In this document: in pieces, positions 616 through 62,289 of the stretch
How positions within the stretch are numbered: position 1 is the stretch's first letter
Layout: each line of letters opens with the position of its first letter
Origin: Isurus oxyrinchus
Taxonomy: Eukaryota
DNA length: 64,000 bases
Direction: 5' to 3'
NCBI GenBank assembly: GCA_026770705.1
Contig: JANJGN010000018.1
Location: 69,626,001-69,690,000, forward strand
Program-made: the position numbers and the translations under genes
Notes under the pieces: generated by a model
Database searches by the model: none
Seen by the model: the letters and a program-made list of their open reading frames with translations, nothing else
What the model was told of the DNA's origin: nothing

Positions 616-639
616 TTCCTCCCCCTTTAACATTGTTTT

Positions 640-1995: not shown

Positions 1996-1997
1996 AT

Positions 1998-6845: not shown

Positions 6846-6884
6846 AGTTCTGTCGAAGGGTCATGAGGACTCGAAACGTCAACT
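6846..6884 (+). ncRNA. Minimal type I hammerhead ribozyme motif (CUGUCGA variant)
   Basis: AGTT-CTGTCGA-A-GGGTC-ATGAG-GACTC-GAAAC-GTC-AACT: 4-bp stem I, 5-bp stem II, palindromic ACGT at stem III, GUC cleavage triplet. Lies in a PLE pseudo-LTR. Confidence 0.7.
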
Positions 6885-9182: not shown

Positions 9183-10494
9183 GGGTTGGCTAGGAGATGA
9201 AAGACAGAATGTCTGGCTGAGAGAAAGAGGAGTGCAGAGAGGAGGGCACATGAAGGGCTAGACTGTGATGTTCCCATATTTGAATGACTGTGGACTCTTT
9301 TGGGGGTGGGGTCGGTAATGGGGGAAATCAATTTCAATGGGCTGATCCACTACCACGTAATTTATGCCTCCGGCAATTTTTAACTTCCACCTTCCCTCGG
9401 CACCTAGACATCCACTTGACGATTCGTCAAGTGCATGTCTAGATGCTGAGGGGAGGATGAAGTTAAATTTTGATAGAGATGCAAGGGGCTCAATAATTTG
9501 GGAAAAAGAGCCATAAACTTATTTGGCAGGAAGTTAAGTGATATTATGCTATGGTACAAGATAAACATGTATTTGTTGTTCTCTATTTTCAAAGATCTTT
9601 ACCCTTGTATTCTCACATTTTAAAATCAGAATACATTCAGATTTTTTTCTGTAATTTTATATTTCTGACATCAGGTATTTACTAGCCAATGGAGCCTGCC
9701 AAGGCAGAAACACCTAGTTTCCAGAAGTACTATTAATCATACATTCTATGCCAATCCAATATTAACAAGCTTCCCCAAGGAGTATTATGGCTTTGCCTGA
9801 TGGCTGGCAGCTGGGAGATACAGACTGAGATTGCCGACCATTATTTGTGATGCTGCTGCACAACCTTCGCCCCTAGGCAAGTGCCTAAAGCAGGATGACG
9901 TTTGAATGGGCCTTTATTTTTGCAGGTACTTGCAAAAGTCAGTCTGGCTGTCTCAAGAATACCCCCTGTAAATGCAGCTAACCTAGTAACAATGATCAGT
10001 GGGGAAGAAGTGGATGAGGGAAAATGCCTGTCACTTGTGTCAGAGGGCCCCTGACAGCATGAGAACAGCAACTTCTTACCCTGAGCTACTGTGCTGCAAT
10101 ATTCGACATGTATAGTCGCACTGAAGTCCGAATTACATAACTCAGTATAGCTCTATCTGTTCTACCCCAGCTCTGGATCTCAGAAGAGCACCCTCGATGG
10201 TACGTAGTAGCTTGTGTATTTTTTCAATTTTTATGCTAGCTCCTGTAACTTTTAAGTGAGATAGGCAATGAGTGCCAAATGGGGAATATTTTGTGCTCTA
10301 GAGCTAAATCCAATAAGGTTGACAAGAGGACTGGCCAAACACATTTCTCATTTAATCGTTTGCCTGAGGAGGTGACTTAAATTCCATCAGTTGAAGTAGG
10401 ATTTGAACACAAGGTTAAGAAAATAATAAAAAAACAAAAACAGAATTACCTGGAAAAACTCAGCAGGTCTGGCAGCATCGGCGGAGAAGAAAAG

Positions 10495-10533
10495 AGTTGA
10501 CGTTTCGAGTCCTCATGACCCTTCGACAGAACT
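10495..10533 (-). ncRNA. Minimal hammerhead ribozyme motif (CUGUCGA variant)
   Basis: Same motif as 6846-6884, in an independent insertion. Confidence 0.7.
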
Positions 10534-10909
10534 TGAGTTCGAGTCCAAGAAAGAGTTGAAATATAAGCTGGTTTAAGGTGTGTGTGTGGGGGACGGAGAG
10601 ATAGAGAGAGAGAGAGGTGAGGGGTGTGGTTGTAGGGACAAACAAGCAGTGATAGAAGCAGATCATCAAAAGATGTCAACGACAATGGTACAATAGAACA
10701 CATAGGTGTTAAAATTAAAGTTGGTGATATTATCTAAACGAATGTGCTAATTAAGAATGGATGGTAGGGCACTCAAGGTATAGCTCTAGTGGGGGTGTTT
10801 TTTTTTTATGTAATGGAAATAGGTGGGAGAAGGAAAATCTTTATAATTTATTGGAAAGAAAAAAAAAGAAAGGGGGAAACAGAAAGGGGGTGAGGATGGG
10901 GGAGGGAGC

Positions 10910-12003
10910 TCACGACCTAAAGTTGTTGAATTCAATATTCAGTCCGGAAGGCTGTAAAGTGCCTAGTCGGAAGATGAGGTGTTGTTCCTCCAGTTTGCGT
11001 TGGGCTTCATTGGAACAATGCAGCAAGCCAAGGACAGACATGTGGGCAAGAGAGCAGGGTGGAGTGTTAAAATGGCAAGCGACAGGGAGGTTTGGGTCAT
11101 TCTTGCGGACAGACCGCAGGTGTTCTGCAAAGCGGTCGCCCAGTTTACGTTTGGTCTCTCCAATGTAGAGGAGACCACATTGGGAGCAACGAATGCAGTA
11201 GACTAAGTTGGGGGAAATGCAAGTGAAATGCTGCTTCACTTGAAAGGAGTGTTTGGGTCCTTGGATGGTGAGGAGAGAGGAAGTGAAGGGGCAGGTGTTG
11301 CATCTTTTGCGTGGGCATGAGGTGGTGCCAAAGGAGGGGGTTGAGGAGTAGGGGGTGATGGAGGAGTGGACCAGGGTGTCCCGGAGGGAGCGATCCCTAC
11401 GGAATGCCGATAAGGGGGGTGAAGGGAAGATGTGTTTGGTGGTGGCATCATGCTGGAGTTGGCGGAAATGGCGGAGGATGATCCTTTGAATGCGGAGGCT
11501 GGTGGGGTGATAAGTGAGGACAAGATGGACCCTATCATGTTTCTGGGAGGGAGGAGAAGGCGTGAGGATGGATGTGCGGGAGATGGGCCGGACACGGTTG
11601 AGGGCCCTGTCAACGACCGTGGGTGGAAAACCTCGGTTAAGGAAGAAGGAGGACATGTCAGAGGAACCGTTTTTGAAGGTAGCATCATCGGAACAGATGC
11701 GACGGAGGCGAAGGAACTGAGAGAATGGGATGGAGTCCTTATAGGAAGCGGGGTGTGAGGAGCTGTAGTCGAGATAGCTGTGGGAGTCGGTGGGTTTGTA
11801 ATGGATATTGGTGGACAGTCTATCACCAGAGATTGAGACAGAGAGGTCAAGGAAGGGAAGGGAAGTGTCAGAGATGGACCACGTGAAAATGATGGAGGGA
11901 TGGAGATTGGAAGCAAAATTAATAAATTTTTCCAAGTCCCGACGAGAGCATGAAGCGGCACCGAAGTAATCATCGATGTACCGGAGAAAGAGTTGTGGAA
12001 GTG
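10910..12003 (-). CDS. PLE RT C-terminal half + GIY-YIG endonuclease (open but 5'-truncated)
   Basis: FLRYIDD, FLDL, YKPTD...SSHP, CPRKRCNTC, NLVYCIRCSQCGLLYIGETKR...RFAEH, HFN. The first ~55 aa of track ORF 10910-12169 come from the TSD/flank, not the element. Confidence 0.85.
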
Positions 12004-12469
12004 GGTTAAGAAAATAATGTCTGACCCGCTCTTCTACCCAATTTCCAGTGCTCTGTATTTTAAGAGTAACTCCTCCATATGGATATGTGCTGCTATCTCC
12101 TGCAAAAGAGGTATATGCAACTTGATGATTTAATAAATTGCAACAATTATTTACTGTATGGATCTGCACATTTGTGTGTCCTTGGTGTTTCTGAACCTCT
12201 AAGTGAGAGTATATGTAGAATTGTGATAGATGAAGATATGTGAGCTGCTGCTATCTTCCAGTTGAAAAGATGGGTGAGTCAATATGGAAGTTAAATATCA
12301 AAAGGCATTCAAAATAAGGGGTAAGACTCATGTCCATTGGAATGTGGCATCATATGCCACAGGCCTATTTGATTTTCAATCACAACCACCCCCCTGCAGC
12401 CAATTATGTGTGAAATGAAAATTTCTGTCTTTTGACAAAAGGAGGCAGGTAAAGAAAGATTTTTTAAAA

Positions 12470-22405: not shown

Positions 22406-23370
22406 AAGGGTGGTATCAATACTGTCTACATGTGTGTCCACCTCAGGGTGTTGGCTGGCAACCCCTAGGGCTTTGAGTTTGCCTACAATATTTCAATTAA
22501 CACAGTGAGAGTGATCTTGGACAATATCCTTTACAATGCACAGAATGAGGGCTAGCTGAGCCTACAAGTTCAGCCATGTCCCACAGAGTGGCGAGTGTAA
22601 CACTGGACATATGAACACACATTACAAAGGGATCAAGGGAACACAACTTTGTTTCTTCCACAATAAAGGAAACGTCCCTAACTGCCCTGTAACCATCAAT
22701 GTGTGCCAACTATGAGGCGTGCCAATAGGTTTAGACCTCTAACTAAGCTAGTCTCGACAAATAACGATGATGCACACATAAATAATGTGAAACCAATGTA
22801 ATATGAATTATTAATTCATATATGAATATATGAATTATTTAAATTAGAAAAAAATACCCAAGCCAACTTTGTACTCTCAATGGGGCTCAAGTTAATGGCA
22901 ATGGAGTAGGGCAGGCCAATTTTAGCTGTGATGCAGAGCCCCCCTATTTGACCAGGAGCCCACCCATAGCTGCAGTGGTGTCAGCTAACAGCAGGCTTCA
23001 CCACTGAAGAGCAACCCCACCGCGGAATCGCATGCCCTGCAGACTGCTGGCACTTTAAATTTTAATTGTAATTGTGTGGGGAACTGGAAAAAGCAAGCGA
23101 GCGGAAGAGGCAACACACTTCCAGTTCTGCCGTCAGGAATGGCGTGCCACTAACAAAATTCAACCCTTTATCTCTGTAAACAATTTTTATTTTTCTCACT
23201 CCCTTGAGATTAAAATGATAGTGGCTCCATGGATGAGGAATTCAGTAAGGGACAAAAAGCAAAGAGTAGTGGTGAGTGGTTGTTTCTCAGACTGAGGGGA
23301 AGTAGGCCGAGGTGTGCCCCAGCCATTGTTTGGACCAGTGCTCTTTTTGAGGTACATTAATGGCTGGACT

Positions 23371-23959
23371 TTGTTTTTATTCGATCTTAGGATGTGGGCA
23401 CCGTTGGCTAGGCCAGCATTTATTCTCCATCCCTAATTTCCCTTGAGAAGGCAGTAGTGACCATCTTCTCAACCTGCTGCAGTCCATCTGGTGTAGATAC
23501 ACACATAGTGCTACTTTTCTGTAGAATTTTGATACAACTGAGTGGCTTGCTTAGGCCATTTCAGAATACGGTTAGGAGGCAACCACATTGCCGTGGATCT
23601 GAAGTCACATGTAGGCCATTATGGAAAGGATGACAGGTCTCCTTCCCCTGAAGGACATGTATGAACAAGATGGATTTTTGCAGCAACCTATGATCATTGA
23701 GGTTAACACTTTATTCCAGATTTGTTACTTAATTGAATTTAAATTCACCCAAATGTTGTGCTGGGATTTGAATTTATAGGTGGGATTTTGCCCTTGGTGG
23801 GGGTGCTTGGTGGGGGCAGGCATGGGTGGGTGGGAAGCTGACCACAGCCCACGATCAGCTCTGCACTGCGATTTCACGCAGATGGACCATTTACGCCCTA
23901 TCTCTCTGAAACATTAATTCAGGCCTCTGGCTTACCAGTCCAGTAACATTACCACTATG
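23371..23959 (-). mobile_element. tRNA-headed SINE made of the 5' and 3' ends of family-B LINE (MITE fragment inserted at ~23778-23898)
   Basis: Head (..gtggtaatgttactggactgg..ttcaaatccc), body shared with 57460-57654 (gatacaactgagtggctt), and ~140-bp tail shared with the family-B 3' end. Confidence 0.75.
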
Positions 23960-24599
23960 GATTTGGGTTTACAGGGCATAATTTCAAAGTTTGCAGATGA
24001 CATAAAACCCAGAAATGTAATAACTGCAAGAAGGCTAGTAACAGCCTACAGGAGAACATAGTTGGACTGGTAAAATGTGTACACACATGACAGATGTAAT
24101 TCACTGCAGAGAAGTGTGAAGTGATTTGTTTCAGTAGGAATAATGAGGAAGGACAATATAAACTAATTTGTACAATTTTTAAGGGAGTCAGAAACAGAGG
24201 AACCTGGGGGTATAGGTACGCACTTTTTTGAAGGTGACAGGACAAGTTGACAAGGCTGATAGAAACAGTTTGTGGAATCCTTGCCTTTATAAATAGAGGC
24301 ATAGAGTGCAAAAGCAAGAAAGTTGGGCCAAACATTTATAAAACTGGTTAGGCTATGGTGGGAGTATTGTGGCCAAATCCTGGCACCAGTCTTTTGGAAG
24401 GATATCATGGCTTGAGAGTGATACAGAGGAGGTTTACTAGAATGGAACAAATGAAGAAAGGTTTCACTTATTGGTAGAGATAGAGAAATGAAGCTTATTC
24501 TCTTTAGAAAAAAGAAAACTAAGGCAAGAGTTGATAAAGATGCTCAAAATTATGAAGGATTTTGAAAGACCTTATTTATTCATTCATGGATAATTTTCT

Positions 24600-27258
24600 T
24601 TTATTCATTTATGGGATGTGGATGTCATTGGCTGGGCCAGCATTTAATGCCCATCCCTAATTGCCCTTGAGAAGGTGGTGGTGAGCTGCCTTCTTGAACC
24701 GCTGCAGCCATGTGGTGTAGGTACACCCACAGTGCTGTTAGGAAGGGAGTTCCAGGATTTTGACCCAGTGACAGTGAAGGAACAGTGATATATTTCCAAG
24801 TCAGTATGGTGAGTGGCTTGGAGGGGAGCCTCCAGGGAGTTGTGTTCCCATGTATCTGCTGCCCTTGTCCTTCTAGATGATAGTGTTCATGGGGTTGGAA
24901 GGTGCTGTCGAAGGAGCTTTGGTGAGTTTCTGAAGTGCATCTTGTAAATATTACACACGGTTCATTGGTGGTGCAGGGAGTGAATGTTTATGGAAGAGGT
25001 GCCAATTAAGTGAGCTACTTTGCCCTGGATGGTGTCAAGCTTCTTCAGTGTTGTTGAAGCTGCATTTATCCAGGCTAGCGGAGAGTATTCCATCACACTC
25101 CTGACTTGCACCATGTAGTAACAGTTACATGTAGTAGCAGTTACAGACTTTGGGGGACCCCAGGATATTGGTGGCGAGGGTTTCAGTGATGGTAATGCCA
25201 TTGAAGGTCAAGGGGCATTGGTAAGAATCCCTCTTGTTGGAGACAGTCATTGCCTGGCACTTGTGTGGCACAAATGTTGGTTGCTGCATGTCAGCCCAAT
25301 CCAGGATATTGTCCAGGTCTTGCTGAATTTGGACATGGACTTCTTCAGTATCTGAGGAGTCCTGAATGGTGCTGAACATTGTGCAATCATCAGCGAACAT
25401 CCCTACTTCTGCCCTTATGATGGAAAGAAGGTCATTGATGAAGCAGTGAGGATGGTTGGGCTTAGAACAGTACCCTGAGGGACTCCTGCAGTGATGTCCT
25501 GGGACGGAGATGATTGATCTCCAACAACAGCAGCCATCTTCCTTTGTGCTAGGTATGACTCCAACCAGTGGAGACATTTCCCCCTGATTTCCATTGACTC
25601 CAGTTTTGTGAGAGCTCCTTGATGTCCTGTCAAACACTGCCTTGATGTCAAGGGCAGTCACTCTCACCTCACCTTTGGCGTTCATCTCTTCTATCCATGT
25701 TTGAACCAGGTTTTTTACAGGACTTTTACACTCTATAATGAGGTCAGAAGCTGAGTGATCCTAGCAGAACTCAAACTGAGCATCAGTGAGCAGGTTATTG
25801 CTAAGCAAGTGCCGCTTGATAGCACTGTTGTTGACCCCTTCCTTTAATTTACTAATGATCGACAGTAGACTGTAATTGGATTTGTCCTACTTTTTGTGGA
25901 CAGGACATACCTGGGCAATTTTCCATGTTGCCGGATAGATGCCAATGTTATAGCTGTACTGGAACAGCTTGGCTAGGGGCACGGCAAGTTCTGGAGTACA
26001 AGTCTTCAATACTATTGTCAGAATATTGTCAAAGCCCATAACTTTTGCACTATCCAGTGCCTTCAGCCATTCCTTGATATCATGTGAAGTGAATTGAATT
26101 GGTTGCAGACTGGCACCTGTGATGCTGGGGACCTCCGGAGGAGAATGAGATGAATCACCCACTCAGCACACCTGGCTGAAGATTGTTGAGAATGCCCTAT
26201 CTTGTGTACTGATGTGCTCGGCTCCTCTATCATTGAGGATCGGAACATTTGTGGAGCCTCCTCCTCCAGTGAGTTGTTTAACTGTCCACCACCATTCCCA
26301 CCATTCACGACTGGATGTGGTAGGACTGCAGATCTTAGATCCGATCTGATAACTTAGCTCTATCAATCACTTGCTGCTTTTGCTGTTTGGCACGCAAGTA
26401 GTCCTGTGTTGTATTTTCACGAGGCTGACACCTCATTTTTAGGTATGCCTAGTGCTACTCCTGGACTCCATGCCCTCCTGCACTCTTCACTGAATCAGGA
26501 TTAGTCCCCTGGCTTGATGGTAATGGTAGGTTACATATTGTGGCTGAGTGCAATTCTGCTGCTGCTGATGGCAACACCTCATGGAAGCCCAGTCTTGAGT
26601 TGCTGGATCTGTTTGAAATTGATCCCATTTTGCATGGTAGTGCCACACAACACGATGGAGGGTAAGCTCAATGTGAAGATGGGACTTTGCCTCCTGAAGG
26701 ACTATGCGGTTGCCATTCCCATCGACATTGTCATGGGCAGATGCATCTGCGGCAGGCAGGTTGTTGATGATGAGGTCAAGTATGCTTTTCCCTCTTGTTG
26801 GTTCCCTCACTACCTACCACAGACCCAGTTGGGCAGCTATGTCTGTAGTGGTAGTGCCAAGCCACTTATAGTGATGGACATTGAAGTCCCCCACCCAGAG
26901 TACATTCTGCACCTTTGCCACCCTCAGTGCTTCCTCCAAGTGGTGTTCAACATGGAGGAGCACTGCTTCATCAGCTGAGGGAGGGCGGTACATGGTAAGC
27001 AGGAGGAGGTTTCCTTGCCTATGCTTGACCTAGTGCCATGAGACCGCATGGAGGCCAGAGCCAACATTGGGGGCTCCCAGATCAACTCCCTCCTGATTGT
27101 ATATCACTGTACCACTACCTCTGCTGGGTCAGTCCAGATTTTTATTGAATTCAAATCCCACCATCTGAATTGTGGGATTCAAACCTGGGTCCCCAGAGCA
27201 TTACCCTGGGTATGTGGATTACAGTCCAGTGACAATACCATTACGCCACTGCCTCCCC
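24600..27258 (-). mobile_element. CR1-group LINE 'family B', near full length, with tRNA-derived 5' head
   Basis: APE (REPTRGKSILDLI) and RT (ALDIKAVFD, GVPQG, MFADD, QVRSVMEYSPLAW) remnants. The 5' end reads GGGGAGGCAGTGGCGTAATGG...GGTTTGAATCC. Confidence 0.88.
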
Positions 27259-27262
27259 TACT

Positions 27263-27750
27263 ATTGCCCATCCCTAACAGCCCTTGAGAAGGTGGTGGTG
27301 AGCTGCCTTCTTGAACCACTGCAGTCCTTGTGGTGTAGGTACACCCACAGTGCTGTTAGGAAGGGAGTTACAATGATTTTGATCCAGCGACAATGAAGGA
27401 ACAGTGATATATTTCCAAGTCAGGATGGTGAGTGGCTTAGAGGGGAACTTCCAGGTGGTGGCATTCCCATGTTTCTGCTGCCCTTGTCCTACTAGATGGT
27501 AGTGGTCGTGGGCTTTGAAGGTACTGTCTCAGGAGCCTTGGTGAGTTTCTGCAGTGCATCTTGTAGATAGTACACACTGCTGCTACTGTGCGTCGGTGCT
27601 GGAGGGAGTGAATGGTGGTGGTGTTTGGGATGCCAATCAAGCAGGCTGCTTTGTCCTGGATGGTGTCAAGCTTCTTGACTGTTGTCGGAGCTGTACCTAT
27701 CCAGGCGTGCAGACTATTCCATCACATTCCTAACCTGTGCCTTGTAGATG
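27263..27750 (-). mobile_element. Family-B LINE 3' fragment
   Basis: IHSLQHRRTVAAVCTIYKMHC C-terminus and 3' UTR homologous to 24640-25110. Confidence 0.85.
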
Positions 27751-30700
27751 GAGAAATAAGGAAATAAAAAGAAACAATTTCTAGTGGCAGGAGGATCAGT
27801 AACCAGAGGATGTGGATTTGAAGAGATTGGCAAAGATCAGAGGCGATATGAGGAAATCATTTTTTAGACAGCAAGTTATGATGTGGAATGCACTGCTAGA
27901 AATGTTGGTGGCAGCAGATTCAGTAATAACTTTAAGAAGGAAATTGGATAAATACTTGAAGGGAAAAAATTACAGGGCTATGTGGAAAGGGCAGGTGAAT
28001 GAGCGTGATTGGATAACTCAAAGAGCCAGCTCAGACATGATGGGCTGAATAATGTCCTTCCATGCTGTATCATGCTGTGATTCTGAGATACCTGTTGAGA
28101 AAAGTCAGTTGCAGTACATGTGACTGACTTTCTGGAACTGATTTTCCTCTTAATCTCCTCAATGACAAATTCAGTGGTTCAAATATCCCATCTTTCCTTA
28201 TTCAGGGGCTTTGTTATTTTAACTTAACTAAAATCTTTAACAAGTACTTAAAGGGCATGTGATTTTTATAACAGCAGTTTTCATTAAATAGCATCCTTTT
28301 TAATGTTGAAACGCATCCTCAGGTATTTCACAGATGTTTATGGAGAATGACCAAGAACCAATGCAAGTCGGTGAAGACGACAATAATGGGCAAGGGGCTT
28401 GTTTTCAGAAAAATATATTAAAATACTAGTTTTGGATGAGCTGAAGTTTTTGGAGAGTATCAGATGAGAGGTCAGCCAGAAGCAAATTGGAGTAGTCAAG
28501 TTTGGATAAAATGAAGGCATGACTAAGGGCTTCAATGTAAATGGGCTGAGATAGAGATGGAGGACAACAGTGTTTTGGTGAAGGAATTCGGTGATCTCTA
28601 TGATGGAGAAGAAACAATGTCAGATGATTAGCTTGAAGTTGAATTGGACATCAAAGTTCACAATCTGGTTACAGGAAGGATGATTTTGTCAGTGACAAGG
28701 GCAGAAGAGTATTATGGACAGGAGGCGGCAATTTTGATTTCTGATTTCCCCCTTTATAAATAGTGGCGTAGTTTCCCCAACCCTTCTGTTTGAAGTGATC
28801 CTCTATTAATAACCCCACAGCAAACTCAAAATAGGGTAAAATAAGAGGGGTAGTTTATTTTACACACACATAAAACATTGGAAGGGGTTTTGCAACATTC
28901 AGCCCTTTTGCACTCATACAATAAAATAGGGATAAGGGGAAAAAAGGTGTACAGGGCAAGACCATGATAAAAATAAGAGTTATGGTTTCATGTGAATCCA
29001 TAGTGCAGAATCAAAAGTCCAATGGTGTATTCCTTCAGAGGTTAGTAGGTTGAAACTGTTGCAGGGTGATCCATCTTTCCAGAAGCGAGGACTTTCCCAT
29101 TGGAAGAGGGCATTTAGGGATGAATTAGTCATATAGGCCCAGATACAGGAGTTGCGATGTTCCGGTAGTTCACAGTGTAGATGAGGGCCAGGCAATGTAT
29201 CTGGACAGGGCTCTTTCTGCTGCTACCTGTTAGGTGGTAAAATTGTAGACTGCCTGGGTTCAGTTCCACATGGCAATATTACAGGAGCTAGCAGCATGAG
29301 GGAGGTCATATGACATCCAACTTCTTCTCCTGAGTTTTAGACAAAGGATGTATTTTTCCAGGTTTGGAATCTTGGGAGGTTTGATAGAGGAGTCAGGGTC
29401 CCTTTTGTCCTTGCAGACATACTGCATCTGTTGGCAAGACCTCTGCCTTAGAAATTTAAAGAGCATTGATGCATTCTTTGGAATTTGATTTTCTGCAGTC
29501 GCAGGGGGCATTAGCACTTCTTTAAAGATAATGATTTTCTGAAGGCTAGAAATTCCTATGGAGTGAGTTATGGCTAGTCAGGAATATCAGGGTAAAGCCT
29601 TTGTCCATTTTAAAAATAGAATAATAATTTTATACAGCAGCCAGGTTGACATAGATATTTATTTGCCTTCCTGACTTCTGGTCGGGACATGCCTCTCCTG
29701 TTGGAGAAACATGAAATTAATTCCATTTAATTTCATTTTTTTAATGTGGTCTTAGGGAAGGAAGATTAGGAAGTGCAGAAGTATACAAGTATTCTCTCAT
29801 TCATACGAGCACATCAATCACAAAGTTAGCAGGGAAAATGGCAATTCCCTGCTGCGTGGGGAAGTCTATTCAGTGCTAGAGTTCTGACTTCCCCCTGTAG
29901 TGGGTCAGGAGATTGCAGTGTTTTAAAGGGATGTTGACCTCTTTAGGGGATTCTGGTTCCAGCTTCTGTTGCTAGGTGCTTTTGGTTGGCACAGCAGCAG
30001 GCAGGCAATTGACCCCTGAACTTGGGCCAGTCTTTCGGGGCTGGGATGAGAGGAAGATGGCCTTCTGGCAGGGCGGCTCCCGCATCCATACTGGATACGG
30101 CTACAGGGCTGTAGCCTGGTGGGGGTTATGGATCATTTTAAAGGGGGTGTTTAATTCTTACCAGTCCTCTTGCAATTCTCTTTAATGGAGGGTAAGCATG
30201 GGTCCAATTTGGTTGAAGTCCCTCTGCTGATCAATTGCATGATCGGGGCAGTGTCTTTTGGGACACTACTGCTCTCTGGTGGAGGGTTAGCTCTTGCTGT
30301 ACCTTGAAATGGCTTATCAACTACATGAGGCATCACCCCCACTCTTTTGGAGCCAATTTGGGAACTTTTCTGCTGCCCATTTTAATTCGCCATAAAGTGG
30401 TCAACAAAATGAATCACTGGCTTCCTGCAGCCTTTGACTTTGGAGGGGGTGCTCTCCTAACATGTTTCATGTTCTCTGGAACAGCACTGCCCTCAAGTGG
30501 AGGTGCAGCTCCAGCTACTGTCCTTGTGGCTTTTCAACTGGGGGAGGCATCTCCCTCACTATCTGCTTATTGGTTTGGGAAGTCCCTTCATTCCTATTTA
30601 ATGCCAGAAAGAAGTTTTCTGCCAGCCATACTTCAGGCAAGTCCTTAATCTTTTCCCTTCTGGATTTAATAACCTGTAATCTTTCAGGCTCTCCAGCTAC

Positions 30701-40930: not shown

Positions 40931-40964
40931 TTATTGGACAGACAGTCCTAATCAATTCTTAAAA

Positions 40965-43050
40965 ATTCTTTCAGTGGATGTGGGCGTCACTGGCTAGGTC
41001 AGCATTTATTGCCCATCCCTAGCTGTCCTTGAGAAGGTGATGGTGCGCCACCTTTCTGAACCACTGCAGTCCATGTGGCGTAGGAACACCCACAGTGCTG
41101 TTAGGCAGCAAGTTCCAGGATTTTGACTCAGCGATAGTGAAGGGACATTTCCAAGTCAGGATGGTGTGTGGCTTGGAGGGGAACTTCCAGGTGGTGGTGT
41201 TCCCATGCATCTGCTGCCCTTGACATTCTAGGTGGTACAGGTCATGGGTATGGAAGGTGCTATCGAAGAAGCCTTGGTGAGTTGCTGCAGTGCACCTTGT
41301 AGATGGTACACACTGCTGCTACTGTGCATAGATGGTGGAGGGAGTGAACATTGAAGGTGGTGAATGGGGTGCCAATCAAGTGGGCTGCTTTGTATTGCAC
41401 GGTGTCAAGGTTCTTGAGTGTTGTTAGAGCTGCACTCATCCAGGCAAGTGGAGAGTATTCCATCACACTCCTGACTTGTGCCTTGTAGATGGTGGACAGG
41501 CCTTGAGTAGTCAGGAGGTGAGTTATTCGCCACAGAATTCCCAGCCTCTAACCTGCACTTGTAGCCACAGTATTTATATGGCTGGTCCAGTTCAGTTTCT
41601 TGTCAATAATAAACCCCAGGATGTTGATAGTGGGGGATTCAGCAATTGTAATGCCACTGAACATCAAGTGGAAATAGTTACATTATCTCTTGTTGGAGAT
41701 GGTCATTGCCTGGCACTTCTGTGGAGCGAATATTACTTGCCATTTATCCGCCCAAGTTGTCCAGGTCTTGCTGCATATGGGCACAGACTGCTTCACTGTC
41801 TGAGGAGTCACAAATGGTGCTGAACGTCGTGCAATCATCAGCAAACATCCCCACTTCTGACCTTATGATGGAGGGAAGGTCACTGACGAAGCAGCTAAAG
41901 ATAGTTGGCCTGGGACACTACCCTGAAGAACTCCTGCAGTGATGTCCTGGGACTGAAGTGATTGACATCCAACAACCACAACCATCTTACTTTGTGCTTG
42001 GTATGACTCCAACCAGTGGAGAGTTTTGCCCTGATTCCCATTGACTCCAGTTTTGCTAGGGCTCCTTGATGCTGCACTCAATCAAAGGCTGCTTAGATGT
42101 CAAGGGCAGTCACTCTCACCTCACTTCTTGAGATCAACTCTTTTGTCCATGTTTGGACTAAGACTGTATTAAGGTCAGGAGCTGTGTGGCTCTGGCAGAA
42201 CCCAAACTGAGCATCAGTGAGCAGGTTATTGCTAAGTAAGTGCCTTTTGATAGCACTGTCAATGACCCCTTCCATCACTCTGCTGATGATCGAGAGTAGT
42301 GTGATGGGGTCATAACTGGCCAGGTTGGATTTGTCCTGTTTGTTGTGTACAGGATATACCTGGGCAGTTTTCCACATAGCCAGGTGGGTGCCAGTGTAGC
42401 TGCACTGGAACAGCTTGGCTTGAGGTGAAGCTAGTTCTGAAGCAGAAGTCTTCAGCACTATTGCTGGAATGTTGTCAGGGCCCATAGCCTTTGCAGCATC
42501 CAGTGCCTTCAGTTGTTTCTTAATATGATATGGAGTGAATCGAATTGACTGAAGACTGGCATCTATGATGCTGGGGATCTCCGGAGGAGGCTGAGATGGA
42601 TCATCCACTGGCACTTCTGGCTAAGGATTGTTGCGAACACTTAAACCTTGTCTTTTGCACTGATGTGCTGGGCTCCTCCATCATTGAGGATGGGGATATT
42701 TGTGGAGCCTCCTCCTCCAATTAGTTGTTTAATTGTCCACCACCGTTCACAACTGGATGTGGCAGGACTGCAGAGCTTAGATCTAATCTGTTGGTTGTGG
42801 AATCGCTCAGCTCTGTTTATTGCTTGCTGCTTTCACTGTTATGCAAGTAGTCCTGTGTTGTAGCTTCACCAGGTTGACACCTCATTTTTAGGTATGCTAG
42901 GCATTGCTCCTTGCATGCCCTCCTACACTGAACCATGGTCAGCTCGGTCAATAGTGGTGCTACCGAGCCACTCTTGGTGATAGATTTTGAATTTCCCCAC
43001 CAGAGTACATTCTGTGCCCTAATCACCCTTAGTGCTTCCTCTAAGTGGAA
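40965..43050 (-). mobile_element. Family-B LINE, 5'-truncated, with internal deletions
   Basis: KAMGPDNIPAIVLKT, DAQFGF, RVTALDI and MEYSPLAW motifs; family-B 3' UTR. Confidence 0.9.
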
Positions 43051-43922
43051 GTTTGAGCTCTTGAAATTAGCTCTGTTTAAAATAGCATATTGTCCTTGCT
43101 TTCAGCAACATTTTGGTAACATTAAAATAGTAATGTTTCTTTAGGTAGTTGTAATATTATTGGCTTTCAAAATTTCATCTCCCCACAAGCATTGCATTTT
43201 TATTTTAACAGAATTTTTTGCCTGTACTTTTTTCTTGCATTGGAAAATTCCATTGAAGGTAGTGAAGACCTGAAGTGTTTTTCCTTCTGGGACAACCTTA
43301 ACACAATGTCTAGAATTTCCTTCCATGATATCTTATGGATAGATTATGATGAACGTAACAAATGATTATTATTTTTCTTGAGTCTCATTTGAACCCAGAC
43401 TTCCAGAAGTGCAAACAGTATATGAATATGTATGAAGTGTTTCCAGAAATTGATTTTTTTTTTCTGCCGACTTTTGGGATTCTGCCGAGCTAATATTTAG
43501 TCCTAACAATAAACTGTCAGCTTACATCATCTTGTTCAGAATGAGTATCTGTGCTGCTACATGTTCTGCATGTTTTGAGTTTCCAGAGAAAAGAGCATTG
43601 AGGCCAGAACTATAGCTGTCCGGATGGACCGCCTTATCCCAAGCTACTTCAACACTGCTTCTTTTTGTTTCAGATATAAATTTGTGTCTCTCTCAATAAA
43701 CTAAATATTAAGTTGAGAGTAGAATGAATTCCACTTACCATTACTTCAGAGAAGTATCCTTCTAGCAGAATCCAATATCTGTTGCCCTGTGAATATAGGA
43801 GAAAAATTGATATTGGTACTAAACAGCACCAATGGTTATTTGAAAAGCTCACTAATGTGAAGAAGTGGTTAAATTTTTCAAAGTGCTTCCTATTACGGGT
43901 TGCCTTGCCAAGTTCATTGGCT

Positions 43923-44590
43923 CAAAAACAAAAATTGCTGGAAAAACTCAGCAGGTCTGACAGCATCTGTGGAGAGAAAGACAGAGTTAACGCTTTGAGT
44001 CCGGATGACCCTTCTTCAAAACTAAAGAGAAGTAGAAATGTGGTGAAATATATACTGTCTAAGGGGGTGGGTGGGACAGGTGAAGCTGGATAGAAGGCCA
44101 GTGATAGGTGGAGGTAAAGGAGAGATTGCAAAATGTGTCATAAACAAAAGGTCGAAGGGATGTTGATGGTGGTGATATTGGTTGATAGAAGTGCTAATGG
44201 TGACATTAAGAGTAGAAAGCAGGACGAGCAAGTGACAGACGGCCCTAGTGGGGGTGGGGTGGGGGGAGGGGATGGTGTGGGAGAAAAGATCAACATAGGC
44301 CAAAAGGTGGGGATAAAACAATGAATGGAAATAAATTTTAAAAATAATAATGGAAATAGGTGGGAAAAAATGTATATATAAAAATTTAAAAACAAATATT
44401 TGAAAAAAGGAGATCAAAAATGGGTGAGAATGGAGGAGAGAGTTCATGTCTGAAGTTGTTGAACTCAATGTTAAGTCCGGAAGGCTGTAAAGTGCCTAGT
44501 CGGAAGATGAGGTGCTGTTCCTCCAGTTTGCGTTAAGCTTCACTGGAACATTGCAGCAGGCCAAGGGTGAACATGTGGCCATGAGAGCAG
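43923..44590 (-). mobile_element. PLE 3' fragment (EN C-terminus + pseudo-LTR, degenerate hammerhead at ~43985-44023)
   Basis: Encodes ..EEQHLIFRLGTLQPSGLNIEFNNF on the minus strand; terminus homologous to 10428-10500. Confidence 0.88.
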
Positions 44591-51601: not shown

Positions 51602-54600
51602 TGTGTGAAGAGCAAGCACTAATTCAGTCACAAATGAGTTGCAAAAGCTTTGCAGATTAGCCAGCCCAGGGTCTTATTGTATATTCTATTACACCACTGG
51701 TAACACGTTCAATATGTGCAGCATGCATTAAAACCATAATATCTACTAAACACCAATAGGACTAAAGCTGAAATATGACTCAACGATTTTCTTTAATTGT
51801 TGTGCAAGAAGCAAATGTAATTCTGTACAAGTGATGAATACCTCATGTCTGGTTTTCTGCGTTGTGTTCCAGAATTATTCCTGCACAACTGTGAATGGTT
51901 CAAAGAGTATTTATTTTCATAGCCTTTTTGGACAATATTTCAGAAATAAAAGTCAAATACTGTTTGAAGGCAGATTCTCAAAGACCCAATAGTCTTCTAG
52001 CAACTTTCATCACCATCTTCAAAAAGATTAACGCAGCAAATTTTTTGAGGAAAAGATAGATCTTTAATAATAAAAAGTACGTTGTCTAGATGTTTGTATT
52101 GATCTACACACAACGTGATCTTTCCAGCTTTTGTACATCAATATTAAAAAATGCCATAACAGCTCTTTTTCTAAAGAACCCATTAATCAGCATTTATGAA
52201 CAGAACCTCACTTTCTCAATGAAATTGCACAAGCATGCAAGATTGTTATGTCCAGTGCCTCTGCACCCATAGGCTGGCATAGGTTTTTTGTCCTTATTCA
52301 GTCACAGGGTGTGGGCTTCGTTGGCTGGGCCAGCATTTATTGCCCATCTATAGCTGCCTTGGAAGGTGGTGATGAGCTGCCTTATTGAACTGCTGCAGTC
52401 CCTGTGGTGTAGGTACACCCAGTGTGCTGTTAGGAAACGAGTTCCAGGATTTTGACCCAGTGACAGTGAAGGAACAGCAATATATTTCCAAGTCAGGATG
52501 GTAAGTGGCTTGGAGGGGACCTTGCAGGTGGTGGTGTTCCCATCTATCAGCTGCCTTTGTCCTTCTAGATGGTATTGGTCGTGGATTTGAAAGGTGCTAT
52601 CGAAGGAGCCTTGGTGAATTCCTGCCATGCATCTTGTAGATGGTACACATTGCTGCTGCTGCTGTTCTTCAGTGGTGGAGGGAGTGAATGTTTGTGGATG
52701 TGGTGCCATACAAGTGGACTGCTTTGTCCTGGATGGTGTTAAGCTACTTGAGTGTTGTGGGAGCTGCACTCGTCCAGGCAAGTGGGGAGTATTCCATCAC
52801 ACTCCTGACTTGCGCCTTGTAGATGCTGTACAGGCTTTGGGGAGTCAGGAGGTGAGTTACTCGTTACACTATTCCTAGCCTCTGACCTGCTCTTATAGCC
52901 AGTGTTTATATGGATAGTCCAGTTCAGTTTCTGGTCAATGGTACCCCCCAGGCTGTTGATCGTGGGGGATCCAGCAATGGTAATGACATTGAACATCAAG
53001 AGGTGACGGCTGGATTCTCTCTTGTTGGAGATGGTCATTGCCTGACACTTGTGTGGCGCAAATGTTACTTGCCACTTGTCAGCCCAAGCCTGGATATTGT
53101 CCAGGTCTTGCTGCAATTGGACATGGACTGCTTCAGTATCTGAGGATTCGCAAATGGTGCTGAACATTGTGCAATCATCAGTAAACATCCCCACTTCTGG
53201 CCTTATGATAGAAGGAAAGTCATTGAAGCAGCTGAACATGGTTGGACCTATGACACTGCCCTGAGGAACCCCAGCATTGATGTCCTGGAGCTGAGATGAC
53301 TGACCTCCAACAATCACAGCCGTCTTCCTTTGTGTCAGGTTTGATTCCAACCCGCAGAGAATTTTCCCGATTCCCACTGACTCCAGTTTTGCTAGGGGTG
53401 CCTTGATGCCACATTCTGTCAAATGTTGCCTTGATGTCAAAGGCAGTCACTCCCACCTCGCCTCACCTCGGGAGTCCAGCTCTTTTTCCCCATGTTTGAA
53501 CCAAGACTGTAATGAGGTCAGGAGCTGAGTGACCTTGGCAGAACCCAAACTGGGCATCAATGAGCAGGTTATTGCTAAGCAAGTGCCGCTTGATAGCACT
53601 GTTGATGACCCATTCCATTACTTTACTGATGATCGAGAGTAGACTGATGGGTGGCAATTGGCTGACTTGGCTTTGTCCTGTTTAGTGTGTACAGGACATA
53701 CCTCGGCAATTTTCCACATAGGGTAGATACCAGCATTGTAGCTGCACTGGAACAGCTTGGCTAGGGGCGTGGCAAGTTCTGAAGCACAAGTCTTCAGTAT
53801 TACTGCTGGAATATTGTCAGGGTCCATAGCTTTTGCAGTATCCAGTGCCTTCAGACATTTCTTGATATCACGTGGAGTGAATCTAATTGGCTAAAGACTG
53901 GCATCATGATGCTGGGGATCTTCAGAGGAGGTCGAGATGGATCATCCACTCAGCATGTGGCTGAATGTTGTAGCAAATGCTTCAGCCTTATTTTTTGCAC
54001 TGATGTGCTGGGCTCCTCCATCATTGAGAATGGGGATATTTGTGGAACGTCCTCTCCAGTGAGTTGTTTAATCATCCACCACCATTCACGACTGGATGTG
54101 GCACAACTGCAGAGCTTAGATCTGATCCCTTGGTTGTGGGATCGCTTAGCTCTATCGTTTGCCGCTTATATTGTTTGGCACGCACGCAGCCCTTATAGCT
54201 TCACCAGGTTGGCACCTCCATTTTAGGTATGCCTGGTGCTACTCCTGGCATGCCCTCCTGCACTCTTCATTGAATCAGGGTTGATCCCCAAGTTTGGTAA
54301 TGGTCGAGTAGGGAATATGCCAGGCCATGAGGTTATAGATTGTGTTCGAGTACAATTCTGCTGTGGATGGCCCACAATGCCTCATGGATGCCCAGCCTTG
54401 AGTTGCTAGATCTGTTGGAAATCTATCCCATTTAGCATAGTGGTAGTGCCACACAACATGGAGAGTATCCTCAATGTGAAGGCAGGATTTTGTCTCCACA
54501 ACTGTGCGGCGGTTACTCTTATCAATACTGTCCTGGACAGATGAATCTGTGGTAGGCAGGTTGGTGAAGTCAAGTATGTTTTCTCCTTTTGTTGGTTCCC

Positions 54601-54915
54601 TCACCACCTGCCGCAGATAGCTATGTCCTTTAGGGATCCGTCGATAGTGGTGCTACCAAACCACGCTTGGTGATGGACATTGAAGTCCCCCACACAGTAC
54701 ATTTTGTGTCCTTGCTTCCTCCAAGTGGTGTCCAGCATAAATTAATTAGCTGAGGGAGGGCAGCACATGAAGGTTTCCTTGCTCTTGTTTGACCTGATGC
54801 CATCAGACTTCATGGGGTCCAGAATTGATGTTGAGGACTCCCAGGGCTGTTCCTTCCCTACTGTATAGCATGGTGCTACCATCTCTGCTAGTGAAGACAA
54901 GACAGATGGTGATGG

Positions 54916-57265
54916 CAAAAGCAAAATACTGCGGATGCTGGAAATCTACAGCAAAAACAAAAATACTTGGAAAAACTTAGCAGTTCTGACAGCATCTGCG
55001 GAGAGGGATACAGTTGATGTTTCGAATCCGTTGACCCTTCATCAGAACTAAAAAAATATAGAAATGAGATGAAATATAAGTGGGTAGAGGGGGGTGGGAC
55101 AGGTAGAGCTCGATAGGGGTCCAATGATAGGTGGAGGCCAAGAAGAGACTGCCAAAGATGTCATAGACAAAAGGACAAAGGGGTGTTGACAGTGGTGATA
55201 TTATCTAAAGGATGTGCTAATGGGGACATTAAGGGTAGAAAGCAGGACAAGCTAGTGGCAGGTGGCCTAGGGGTGGGGTAGGGATCAAAATGGGCTAAAA
55301 AGTGGAGATGAAACAATAGATCGAAATATGTTTTAAAATAGGTGGGAAAAGAAAAATATATTTGTTTTAAAAATATTATAAATTATTGGAAAAAGGGAGA
55401 TCAGAAAGGGGGTGGGGATGGAGAAGAGAGTTCATGATCTGAAATTGTTGAACTCAATATTAAGTCCCGAAGACTATAAAGTGTCTAGTCGGAAAATGAA
55501 GTGCTGTTCCTCCTGAGCTTCACTGGAACATTGCAGCAGGCCAAGGTCGGACATGTGGGCATGAGAGCTGGGTGGAGTGTTAAAATGGCAAGCGACAGGG
55601 AGGTCTGGGTCATGCTTGCGGTCAGGCCGAAGGTGTTCTGCAAGGTGGTCACTCAGTCTACGTTTTTGTGTCTCCAATATAGAGGAGGCCGCATTGGGAG
55701 CAGCAAATGCAGTCGACTAAATTGAGGAAAGTGCAAGTGAATGTTTGGGCTCTTGGACAGTGAGGATGGGGGGGGGGAAAGTAAAGGTACACGTGTTGCA
55801 CCTTCTTCGGTTGCATGGGAGGGGGTTGAGGTGTAGGGGGTGATGGAGGAGTGGACAAGGGTATCCTGCAGGGAAAGATCCCTGTGGAAAGCCGCCGGGG
55901 GTGGGGTGGCGAAGGGAAGATGTGTTTGGTGGTGGCATCATGCTGGAGTTGGCAAAAATGGCGGAGGATGATCCTTTGAATGCGGAGGCTGGTGGGGTCA
56001 TAGTCTCCCAACCTCAGACGGCCCACTTCTATCTCCTACCCAAACTCCACAAACAGGAATGTCCCGGCAGACCAATCATGTCAGCCTGTTCCTGCCCCAC
56101 GGAACTCATTTCTTGCTATCTTGACTCTGTTTTCTCTCCCCTTGTCCAGTCTCTTCCCACCAACATCCATGATTCCTCTGACACCCTACATCATATCAAC
56201 AATTTCCAGTTCCCTGGCCCCAACCGCCTCCTCTTCACCACGGACATCCAATCCCTCTACACCTCCATCCCGCACCGGGATGGTCAGGGCTCTCCGCTTC
56301 TTCCTCGAACAGAGGCCCGGACAATCCTCCATCACCCTCTACACCTCAACCCCCTCCCACGGCACCTTCCCATGAAACCGCAGAAGGTGCAACACCTGCC
56401 ACTTTACCAGCACCCCTCCAGCCCCCCACCCTCCCCCACCCCAACCATCCAAGGGCCCAAACACTCGAGTGAAGCAGCACTTCACTTGCACTTCCCTCAA
56501 TTTTTAGTCTACTGCATTCGCTGCTCCCAATGCAGTCTCCTCTACATTGGAGATACCAAACGCAGACTGGGTGACCGCTTTGCAGAACACCTTCGGTCTG
56601 ACCACAAGCATGACCCAGACCTCCCTGTTCCTTGCCATTTCAACACTCCACCCTGATCTCATGCCAACATGTCTGTCCTTGGCCTGCTGCAATGTTCCAG
56701 TGAAGCTCAACGCACACTGGAGGAACAGCACCTCATCTTCTGACTAGGCACTTTACAGTCTTCCGGACTGTTGAAGTTGTTGAACTCAATATTATGAACT
56801 CTCTTCCATCCCCAACCAGTTTCCAAGCCCCCTTTTTCCAATAATTTATCTTTTTTTTTTTTACAAATTTATTTTCTTTGCCCACCTATTTTTAAATTTA
56901 TTTTGATCTATTGTTTCATCTCCACCTTTTAGCCCATTTCAATACCTTCCTATCCCCATCCCCACTAGGGCCATCTGCTGCTAGCTTGTCCTGCTTGCTG
57001 CCCTTAATGTGCCCATTAGCAGATCCTTTAGATAATGTCAACACCCCTTTGTATATGACATCTTTGGCAGTCTCTTCTTGGCCTCCACCTATCACTGGCC
57101 CCCCTGTCGAGCTCTACCTGTCCCCAGCCCCCCCCAGCTTATATTTCATTTCTATATTTTTTTTAGTTCTGATGAAGAGCCATTCGGACTCTAAATGGCA
57201 ACGCTATCCCTCTCCACGGATGCTGTCAGACTTGCTAAGTTTTTCCAGATATCTTTGTTTTTGTT
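54916..57265. mobile_element. PLE tail-out inverted insertion (minus arm 54916-55999, plus arm 56000-57265)
   Basis: Both arms carry EN C-terminus and pseudo-LTR; the plus arm starts with RT N-terminus FYLLPKLHK...GRPIMS. TSD ACAGATGGT(G/A)ATGG at 54902-54915 and 57266-57279. Confidence 0.9.
55012..55049 (-). ncRNA. Minimal hammerhead motif with canonical CUGAUGA core (older PLE subfamily)
   Basis: Reverse complement: AGUU CUGAUGA A GGGUC AACG GAUUC GAAAC AUC AACU. A more decayed sister copy is at 57165-57203 (+). Confidence 0.65.
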
Positions 57266-57749
57266 ACAGATGGTAATGGTGCTGTCTGTAAGATATGCTT
57301 CTGTGAAAATGACCGTCAGGCTGTTGTTTGATTAGTTTGAGAGACAGCTTTCCCACTTTTGTCACCAGTCCCCAGACTAGGGGGCTAAAGAGGACTTTGC
57401 AGGGTCGACAGGGCCATTGTCAGTGCCTACGTTTTATGGCAGGTGGTCCATCCCATGGCATTTGTAGTGGTTTGATACAACTGAGTGGCTTCTAATTGAC
57501 AATGGTTTCATGGTCATCAATCAACTTTCAATTCCAGATTTTTATTGAATTTAAATTCCACCATCTGCTGTGGTTGGATTTGAACCCAGGTCCCCAGAGC
57601 ATTACTTCTGGATTACTAGTCCAGTGATAATACCACGATACCATCACCTCCCCCTATTATTCTGCCTGATATGCTATCATTCTACCTGCATAAGTAGACT
57701 TTACTGGAAAAGCTGGCAAGTATGCTTGTATTTTTGCCATTCCAATTAG

Positions 57750-58140
57750 ATGTCAGCTGTGTCTCAATGGTAGCACCCTAACTTTTGAATCAAACTGTTG
57801 TGGGCTCAAGTATCATTATAGTGACCTGAGCATATAATCTAGGCTGACACTTCGGTGCAATACAGAGGGAGTGCTGCACTGTTGGATGTGCTGCCTTTCG
57901 GTATGAGATGTTAAACCCAGACCTCATCTGTCCCCTCAGCTGGAATTAAAAGGTCCCACAGCATTATTTCAAAGAAGACTGAATTCTTCCCAGTGACCTG
58001 GTAAATATTTATCCCTCAACCAACACCCAAAATCAGATTGTCTGGCCAATACCATGTTGCTGTTTGTGGACAGATTGGTTGCAATGTTCCCTATATTACA
58101 ACAGTCAAAATACTTAATTGACTGTCAAGCACTTTTGGCC
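57750..58140 (+). mobile_element. SacSINE1/Deu-domain tRNA SINE
   Basis: tRNA-like head followed by Deu-domain-like gagggagtgctgcactg...gagatgttaaacc...atttatccctcaa and an L2-type tail. Confidence 0.78.
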
Positions 58141-59200
58141 TTCGGAGGTTCCAGTCATTTTTTTAATCTGAAGAGACTTTGAAAGTTATGTGCAAACTGT
58201 ATACTCAGCATCTTGGCAAAAACAAAATAAAAGTTGTTTATCCATCATTGCACAGAATGGTGGAATCATACAGGAAATTGATGAATTCTATATTATACAA
58301 TAAAGTGGAAATAGATCTATATTTCCTGTACCTTTTTCTATGAAATATCAGTTATGATCATGAAACAACAAGCGAGGTTGTCTAATCAGCCTTTTCAAAG
58401 TAGCCTTTAGACTCATCAACCTTTTATTTGGATACTTGGGCAGCCTGAATTATTGGAAAAAAATACACTCCAACAATTGAGCCATTGTGCCACCATCCTG
58501 ACTGTCACTCCATGTTTGTGATTATGTGGATGTTGGGTCTTGTTTTCCTGTTCTGAAACCTAAACCCAAAGGAAAGCTTCGTTCCACAGAGTATGTACTC
58601 AAGATTCTAGAAAGTTCTCAAAGTTGTGTTCCTAATTGCTGAACACAACTGGGCACTTCTTATACTATCTATAAACTAAGGAATTTTAACTCTTCATTGG
58701 CTTTCATAATAATTGCAACAGAACCATATCTCTAATGCTAAGTTAGACTACAAATATGTACATACACTTGTGAATTGGAGCTTATTAACTAACCATAATC
58801 CACAAGGGACCATAGGCACCTCTTCATTAGAGAGAGAGAGAGAGACAAGTGGTTATATAGCTCAAGGGGCACCACTCACACACCAAGGGTGGGGTGGGGC
58901 AAGGCAAGAAGGTAGGCCTCTGAACTATCATGCTGTATGGGGATTGGACCTGTGCCATTGGCATCATTCTGCACCACACTATAGTTATGTGAGCTAACCG
59001 ACCTCCTTTCCAATGCTACACTAATTTACAGATTGTTTTAATATCAATACAGCATAAACCTTGAGATTAATAAAGTGCAAAATTTCATGTATCTTTATAA
59101 CCCCTTTCCAATGTTTATTTACCCAAGTAACATTATACAAATATATTCCTTCAAATCTCTGAATTATTGATCAAATGTTGTCTTGTAAAACTTAGACTAA

Positions 59201-60667: not shown

Positions 60668-61515
60668 TTTTTTTTTTAAATAATTCATTTACGGGACGTG
60701 GGTGTTGCTGGCTTGGTCAGGACTTATTGCCTATGCCCCTCAGAAAGGAAAAACAGTTGAGCAGTACTCTTATTTCGCAGTTTTTACTGTTTTTCTTTTT
60801 TTGCCTTCTGGGCTAATTGCCCTTGAAGGTTGTGATGAGCAGCTGCCTTGAACTGCTGTGGTCCATGTGGTGTAGGTACACCCACAGTGCTGTTAGGAAG
60901 GGAGTTCCAGGATTTTGACCCAGTGGCAGTGAAGGAACGGCAATATATTTCCAATTCAGGATGGGTGAGTGGCTTGGAGGGGAAATTCCAGGTAGTGGTG
61001 CTCCCAAGCTGCCCTTGACCTTCTAGATGGTCGTGGTCGTAGGTTTGGAAGGTGCAGTCTAAGGGGCCTTGGTGAGTTTCTGCAGTGCATCTTGTAGATG
61101 GTACACACTGCTGCCACTGTGCATTGGTGGTGGAGGGAGTGAATGTTTGTGGATGGGGTGCCAATCAAGCGAGCTGCTTTTGTCCTGGATGGTGTCAAGC
61201 TTCTTGAGTGATGTTAGAGTTGCACTCATCCAGGCAAGTGGAGAGTATTCCAGCACACTCCTGACTTGTGCCTTTGTAGATGGTGGGCAGGCTTTGGGGA
61301 GTCAAAAGGTGAGTTACTCGCTGAAGGATTCTTAGTCTCTGACCTGCTCTTGTAGTACTTGTATGGCAAGTCTAGTTCAATTTCTTGTCAATGGTAACCC
61401 CCAGGATGTTGATAGTGGAAGATTCAGTGATGGTAATGCCTTTGAATATCAAGGGGTGATGGTTAGATTCTCTTGTTGGAGATGGTCATTGCCTGGCACT
61501 TGTATGGCACTTGCC
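60668..61515 (-). mobile_element. Family-B LINE 3' fragment inserted in a MITE (MITE pieces ~60491-60665 and ~61520-61731)
   Basis: LEYSPLAWMS, IHSLHHQCTVAAVCTIYKMHC; polyA tail as a T-run at 60666-60677. Confidence 0.85.
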
Positions 61516-62289
61516 ACTCAAGGACCGTTTCCCACCCAGCCTTAGTTTTCAGGCTGGCAGGAGGAGTTCAGGGGCAGCAGGGAAGCCTGGGAAGTGACCA
61601 TACTCAGACCTTGGGCTGGAGCAATCCTTGGAGAGTTAAGTAGCTGCAGGGCAGTCAGTCTTGGCAGGGATGTGGGCTGCTGACGCTTAGGATGGTGGGG
61701 TTTCCCTTTCCGCCATCCAAAAAATCCTGGCCATGAAGTGGTATGTGACCCAGTACCAGTTTCAGGTTACTGCTGCATGGTTTATGCTGGCTGGCATCAT
61801 TTAAAATTGACCCCAAATGAACCCCGTCTGAGAAGATGAATGGAGTTTCACAAAAGTACATGGCAAAGTAGGTAGCGACAGGAAAACCAAGGTAGCACAA
61901 TACCCCATTTTTAAAAGCAATAATAACTAAATAAGCTTGTCCTATTTAACATCCTTCTGCCTCCAGGGTAGTACCGTCCAACACTGGATGTTAGCTTTAT
62001 TCTGGCATGATTTAAGATGCACTATAAATAAAAAAGAAATAGGATGTCTGATGCCACCATGTCCTTGCCCCATGATTTATCTTTGACCACGGAAAAGCAG
62101 TTGGATGTTTCTGCCACCTGTTGGAAGTAAAGGCAGCAAATCAGGTGATACTGAAGGGTGGGGAATACAGTTTGACAACCCAAATCAAGCTGGCATAATA
62201 TCCAAGCTGTAATGTTATAGTCGGTGAACGTTTCTGTTGATCTTAAACCAATTTGCAAAGGTGAGCTTACTGGCTAACTTTTCCATGAG

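Follow-up and report, generated by a model that had tools for sequence, protein, structure and literature searches.

Elasmobranch Zenon LINEs carry a tRNA-type head and are candidates for transcription by RNA polymerase III

[quoted passage not shown] SINE2 elements such as Bov-tA and SINE2-1_ACar join a transfer RNA (tRNA) head, which holds an A and a B box, to the 5' and 3' parts of a LINE, as does the SINE described below; in SINE2, however, the head was added to a deleted, non-coding LINE derivative (PMC5786205), whereas in the element studied here, Zenon, the autonomous coding LINE is headed. As sources of such bipartite derivatives the consulted parts of that account name only RTE, Ingi, Vingi and R2. 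RTE-1_DAn and related elements are, like Zenon, LINEs with tRNA-like sequence, but they belong to the RTE clade, and the same parts make no Pol III claim for them. That the RNA of an autonomous LINE can depend on a non-Pol II transcript and have a self-cleaved 5' end is known from R2 and other ribozyme-processed LINEs (PMC5786205). These, in contrast to Zenon with its internal tRNA-type promoter, rely on co-transcription with host ribosomal RNA and on a ribozyme. The locus analysed here lies in Isurus oxyrinchus, contig JANJGN010000018.1, positions 69,626,001-69,690,000 (the window, 64,000 nt of a 4.98-Gb genome, whose numbering is used below). A sequence-only reading had proposed window positions 52295-57654 as a Pol III-transcribed, protein-coding LINE lacking ORF1. 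Its tRNA-type head, its single frame for an APE endonuclease and a reverse transcriptase (RT) and the lack of ORF1 all stand, and the depletion of terminators now has statistical support.

On sequence comparison, 52295-57654 (minus strand) is a dead, decayed copy of the elasmobranch Zenon LINE, an abundant element type of 3.3 kb. It does represent one LINE copy but is not continuous, since ~3.0 kb of LINE are split by a 2.35-kb Penelope-like insertion. For the family as a whole, 40 further stretches were collected, 17 near-full copies were aligned and 190 pieces were gathered with a 3,270-column profile; model positions are columns of this profile, and sequence statistics refer to its majority columns. 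The tRNA-derived head forms the 5' end of the LINE at 57560-57654 (minus strand; columns 2-160) and is cloverleaf-like with a long variable arm. It holds a decayed A box, TGGTATCGTGG (57633-57643, minus strand; model 3-13, family majority TGGCGTAGTGG), and the B box GGTTCAAATCC (57576-57586, minus strand; model 67-77, family majority GGTTCGAATCC). The second headed copy, 24598-27258 (minus strand), which lacks model 122-573, has the A box TGGCGTAATGG at 27248-27238 and the B box GGTTTGAATCC at 27185-27175. Both B boxes were thus as first read, whereas the A box quoted for the two copies belongs to the second one only. The heads of the two copies are 77% alike, in line with the common 5' end ascribed to them.

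Zenon elements without ORF1 and with a poly-A tail have been described in five elasmobranchs, and loss of ORF1 is normal for Zenon (Stuart et al. 2026, PMC13343379). Our comparison with the supplement of that paper covered the first 400 nt of each entry. Over this length CarCar_Zenon-1, RhiTyp_Zenon-1, ScyCan_Zenon-1, HypSab_Zenon-1 and SquAca_Zenon-1/2/3 are near letter-identical to our family, and all but one of the seven measure 3.1-3.3 kb. Inspected by eye, all seven consensus sequences, from five species, begin with the head; the two hagfish entries and the one coelacanth entry have no head and contain runs of four T (T4). A 15-nt leader motif gave six matches in Table S2, the rows shown being Zenon, and when six B-box spellings were compared with all rows, one spelling matched, with three hits, all in elasmobranch Zenon. 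By this near-identity the LINE family is the published elasmobranch Zenon. In an RT tree of 39 rows, with no named Zenon row among them, the family sits on a long branch beside a whale-shark protein (100/99), within a nine-row clade separate from the second CR1 family of the window (family A). Given that the family is published and that Zenon normally lacks ORF1, what is unusual is confined to the head and the exclusion of terminators. The terms 'tRNA' and 'polymerase III' are absent from the main text of PMC13343379, and head, partner SINE and terminator exclusion go unmentioned in the parts examined; apparently, the head and the terminator exclusion of Zenon have been unremarked so far.

The head is a trait of the elasmobranch Zenon family. 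Full-length copies are collinear from head to tail over ~3.2 kb, share a G-rich 5' end ~10 nt before the A box and finish in a short A-tail; each copy diverges from the column majority by 6-12%. The A and B boxes are canonical, lie 53 columns apart and are identical in LINE and SINE copies. A 5-pair anticodon stem, whose pairs are kept in 91-95% of 67 copies, is accompanied by a long variable-arm hairpin, and the calls made under relaxed ARAGORN settings are mostly Thr(AGT). Default ARAGORN returned no tRNA gene in the whole window and Rfam no match on three copies, both missing the decayed head. The expectation that the head would be contiguous with a single APE-RT open reading frame (ORF) throughout the genome is supported: among copies selected by their endonuclease, 7 of 9 have a head in front of the body, as do 31 of 39 selected by the inner leader (38 of 48 in all), the ten copies without it starting at model 66-253. 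Among 29 loci selected by the head, 17 continue into the body, ten jump to the 3' tail as SINEs and two are unresolved. As to the further expectation of one target-site duplication around head and ORF, no convincing duplication flanks any of 37 head-to-tail pairings of these diverged copies, where we found short or misplaced matches only. This lack of duplications joining head and body, together with leader deletions in both window copies, speaks for chance chimeras in which SINEs merely sit before truncated LINE copies. Such chimeras are nevertheless refuted by the family-wide collinearity over ~3.2 kb from the same 5' start, by the 38 headed copies among 48 and by the same join in independently published consensus sequences, and we regard them as vanishingly improbable.

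The partner SINE of ~350 nt consists of model 1-280 joined to 3198-3268, and its head differs from the LINE head at few columns. Of the properties that define SINE2, the LINE has the tRNA-like boxed head, and only the ~350-nt derivative is also short and non-coding. As it is the autonomous, protein-coding LINE that bears the head, the SINE could have arisen by plain deletion. Persaeus, the partner of a lepidopteran Zenon, is likewise short (~350 nt), internally deleted and poly-A-tailed, but in contrast to the SINE described here it has neither tRNA homology nor a Pol III promoter (PMC6740152). In sharks, SacSINE1 (Deu) and HE1 (V-SINE) are also tRNA-headed SINEs with LINE tails. Their reported partners are L2-2_CM and HER1, whereas here the Zenon LINE supplies the tail; SacSINE1 and HE1 are presumably families other than the Zenon SINE. 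An assignment of the SINE to HE1 or SINE2-1_CM was dropped, since different partners are reported in the literature and it was Zenon that the LINE proved to match. Further shark SINE-LINE pairs are described by Luchetti 2017 (PMC5499810) and Ohshima 2013 (PMC3747384). In contigs from public sequencing runs of four organisms, each of the 30 bins is covered and SINE-type joints occur, but these contigs are uninformative on start, strand and level; none of the runs listed as containing the family was of RNA. An A-run of at least four was scored at 43 of 57 3' ends of the family. In 8 of these 43 tails T4-T5 immediately precedes the A-run, against a background of 17 of 518 A-runs and none at three internal T-A junctions; a Pol III terminator with poly-A behind it, or else the common change of A-tails into T5A5 palindromes, might account for this.

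The second unusual property concerns the sense strand. As the sequence-only reading had it, TTTT is absent from 24600-27258, 40975-43050 and 52295-54915 (7,356 nt, against 34 sense AAAA runs) and occurs in isolation at 57306, 60749 and 61304. The 3,268 majority columns contain 15 runs of at least four A and none of four or more T, for which base composition predicts 4.5. Tested against synonymous codon shuffles as that reading suggested, the zero holds, but with 2.1-2.2 runs expected (P 0.07-0.09) it is inconclusive alone. Runs of three T are depleted in the ORF as well, with 4-5 observed and 12.7 expected when synonymous codons are permuted (P <0.001). Human Pol III is partly terminated by T3VT2, T2VT3, TVT3, T3VT, T2AT2 and T2CT2, whereas isolated T3 and T2GT2 are almost inactive (Orioli 2011, PMC3141230). 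Counting T4 plus the motifs active in that study as one terminator class, we found none in 3,268 sense columns versus 35 on the antisense strand. Within the ORF the count is zero against 6.0 expected (0 of 3,000 synonymous shuffles and, in a rerun, 2 of 2,000; P ~0.001), against 5.0 with dinucleotides kept (P 0.005) and against 3.0 with codon-junction bases kept (P 0.02). The T clusters left are six isolated T3 and two TTGTT, the only remaining motif with four T in five positions. Only T, and only the sense strand, shows the depletion; equivalent A, C and G patterns, pyrimidine tracts and splice-site motifs are at expectation. Taken alone, the phenylalanine codon bias (TTC 14, TTT 4) does not stand apart from that of the remaining two-fold codons (P 0.31). 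In one unmodified copy, whose open frame extends over 603 codons, no terminator site occurs where 4.7 are expected (P 0.007), and the decayed window copies have gained 3-8 each versus ~30 antisense. Selection against Pol III terminators, first argued from T4 runs that prove insufficient alone, is thus supported once non-canonical terminators and controls are included.

The family-A CR1 copies are rich in sense T4, as had been stated (15 in 4,402 majority columns); they are of similar age (20 loci), have two frames, belong to another starred clade of the RT tree than Zenon and contain 20 terminator sites where 22 are expected. Seven natural CR1-type open frames of the same genome, 420-930 codons long, are at expectation except one. 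This genome also holds a younger CR1 subfamily (L191, L192, L194-L196) with 93-95% pairwise identity and open frames of up to 931 codons. An old L2 family, counted without a shuffle null, has five T4 runs in 1,465 columns at 30% T. Among 80 metagenome relatives, the 51 with frames of at least 600 codons have a ratio to expectation of 0.99 +/- 0.10 (lowest 0.66), and all 49 tabulated relatives contain T4. None of the 80 has a tRNA-type head by profile, pattern or ARAGORN. On one metagenome contig (L118:1965-2039, minus strand) ARAGORN calls a tRNA-Ile-like sequence that runs antisense to a CR1-group frame and lies inside that frame, at its start. Most metagenome relatives are T-richer than the Zenon family, L168 being of similar T content. 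The closest headless relative with DNA (L101:100-1060) has a poly-A tail, a leader of ~900 nt in which a short stretch is duplicated in tandem, and T-runs at expectation; it is more distant than the closest full-length proteins, P0171 and P0047. A Rex1-type control sought by PF09004 gave no match.

These observations bear on whether Zenon might simply be a LINE transcribed by Pol II: its SINE-derived 5' end would be passive and acquired in one tRNA-SINE fusion, its RNA would come from a cryptic or neighbouring promoter, and its T clusters would be rare through composition or through an avoidance of U-rich signals unrelated to Pol III. In favour of this alternative, and to be weighed against Pol III transcription, T4 alone stays below significance, TT (0.70) and TA (0.63) dinucleotides are low overall, and the strictest null gives P 0.02 only. 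AATAAA close to the tail is equally compatible with Pol II, and tRNA-like sequence is known from RTE-1_DAn and related elements (PMC5786205). To the same side belong that one of the seven CR1 frames also falls below expectation (11 versus 16, P 0.03), that the motif class was adopted after the T3 depletion had been seen, and that the terminator rules derive from human extracts and the lineage counts as one observation; low TT as such is counted here too, though the headless L168, with TT at 0.74, has kept three T4 runs. Against a passive head stand the A and B boxes retained in five shark and ray species and a T-specific depletion that persists with dinucleotides fixed (P 0.005) while sparing pyrimidine tracts and splice motifs; moreover, none of the 51 intact relatives approaches it. 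We therefore consider a passive head unlikely, if worth keeping in mind. The head and its conservation across five species are consistent with selection for Pol III read-through of the whole element, as is the fact that the depletion obeys the terminator rules of Pol III and not a general avoidance of pyrimidines or splice sites; it is fairly probable that Pol III makes the full-length Zenon RNA.

The family model contains one open frame, model 300-3206 (969 codons when CpG decay is allowed for), behind a stop-rich leader of 299 columns; with this single APE-RT frame the proposed absence of ORF1 is borne out. Full-length APE and RT proteins align along it at about 30-35% identity. Shared non-CpG variants fall at codon positions 3:2:1 in the ratio 19:9:5, and the frame was kept under purifying selection in headed copies. 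No intact copy was found: frames among the best 150 RT hits reach at most 451 codons, and the longest copy found later has 603. A protein annotated as FERM domain-containing 7-like (P0001) starts with ~125 residues of the family RT at 58-62% identity, which would reflect either mis-annotation or exonisation.

How a full-length Pol III transcript would be translated is the least certain part of the proposal. The leader contains ten well-kept ATGs. In ~51 of 58 copies, translation from the in-frame ATG at 273 would run into a stop at 279 or 297, and the first usable in-frame ATG comes only at model 714, inside the endonuclease domain; for these reasons direct translation is unexplained. An ATG at 328 is well kept (53 of 61 copies) and begins a frame of 35 codons, which overlaps the beginning of the long frame but is in a different phase. 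By eye, this ATG is found in six of the seven published elasmobranch Zenon consensus sequences, with variable spacing upstream, and no canonical slippery heptamer is seen in model 328-433. The conserved 35-codon frame (model 328-435) lies behind an A-rich stretch and is possibly a recoding site or a remnant of ORF1. R2-type LINE RNA is translated uncapped, and Pol III transcripts are reportedly able to serve as functional messenger RNA. That the Pol III-made full-length RNA is translated directly nevertheless strikes us as somewhat doubtful.

The same obstacles favour a scheme with two RNAs, in which the full-length template is a Pol III transcript, accounting for the terminator exclusion, while the enzyme would be translated from a second, capped RNA that Pol II makes from this copy or a different one. 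It agrees with the explanation we prefer on the polymerase and differs from it on translation. The many upstream ATGs and the missing in-frame start would hinder direct translation, and the enzyme evidently works in trans since the partner SINE exists. Yet purifying selection on the frame in headed copies is easiest to understand if protein and template share one RNA, and neither a Pol II promoter nor a splice was identified. Two RNAs are, in our view, quite unlikely.

We tentatively prefer a single 3.3-kb Pol III RNA that would be both template and uncapped messenger for an endonuclease-RT of ~950 residues, with an ORF purged of terminators, persistence across sharks and rays and a SINE formed by deletion; our confidence in this combination falls a little short of even. 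TFIIIC would bind the A and B boxes, and Pol III would start ~10 nt upstream of the A box. Because selection would have removed T4 and interrupted-T terminators, the polymerase could read through 3.3 kb and stop at the first T-run beyond the A-tail. The RNA would be copied back by target-primed reverse transcription. For translation, ribosomes might enter the uncapped RNA internally, at the ATG of model 328 that follows the A-rich stretch, with a frame change or a non-AUG start leading into the long frame.

In the window, the rest of the leader of the 52295-57654 copy occupies 57266-57559 (minus strand); it has lost roughly model 160-284, and the endonuclease frame starts near 57400. The ~280 nt read between 5' end and endonuclease are thus an artefact of leader deletions, which affect both headed window copies; intact copies have ~420 nt. 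The LINE body, 52294-54915 (minus strand; model 536-3266), holds the rest of the APE domain, the RT (RVT_1, E 3e-11), the C-terminus, a short 3' untranslated region and an A-tail remnant, its coding interrupted by stops and frameshifts. Between them the nested Penelope-like insertion, foreign to the LINE (54916-57263, no strand assigned), consists of two inverted arms 78% alike and contains a GIY-YIG match below cut-off and 17 sense T4 runs; it is flanked by a 14-nt target duplication (54902-54915 and 57266-57279). Further members of this Penelope-like family (RT plus GIY-YIG, inverted arms) lie at 10430-12250, 43920-44590 and 5760-6970, with a 446-codon open frame at 10910-12250 (minus strand).

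The other Zenon pieces of the window are all on the minus strand. Two were assigned by the family profile: a third copy at 40961-43050, 5'-truncated and internally deleted, and further 3' pieces at 60680-61519. A short SINE-type derivative at 23355-23773 joins leader (model 69-312) to 3' end (3130-3268), its A and B boxes unmatched, and the 3' piece of another copy, 27259-27754, abuts the head of the 24598-27258 copy. Copies often lie head-to-tail against, or within, the 3' end of a copy of the same family (window 27259-27754 and 24560-24600; loci L002, L008, L033, L058 and L199). A different SINE-like repeat, presumably Deu-type and SacSINE1-like, adjoins the LINE head at ~57750-58150 (plus strand).

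No autonomous LINE driven by Pol III was found in the literature searched, mostly open-access and outside Repbase and Dfam. If the reading proposed here is true, a coding LINE under a tRNA-type promoter crosses the division between LINEs with Pol II and SINEs with Pol III, and Zenon would provide a natural, long protein-coding Pol III unit whose translation start is unexplained. The Pol III claim can be tested in standard extracts with short natural fragments. For the family, a headed LINE that loses its middle would be a direct route to a new SINE.

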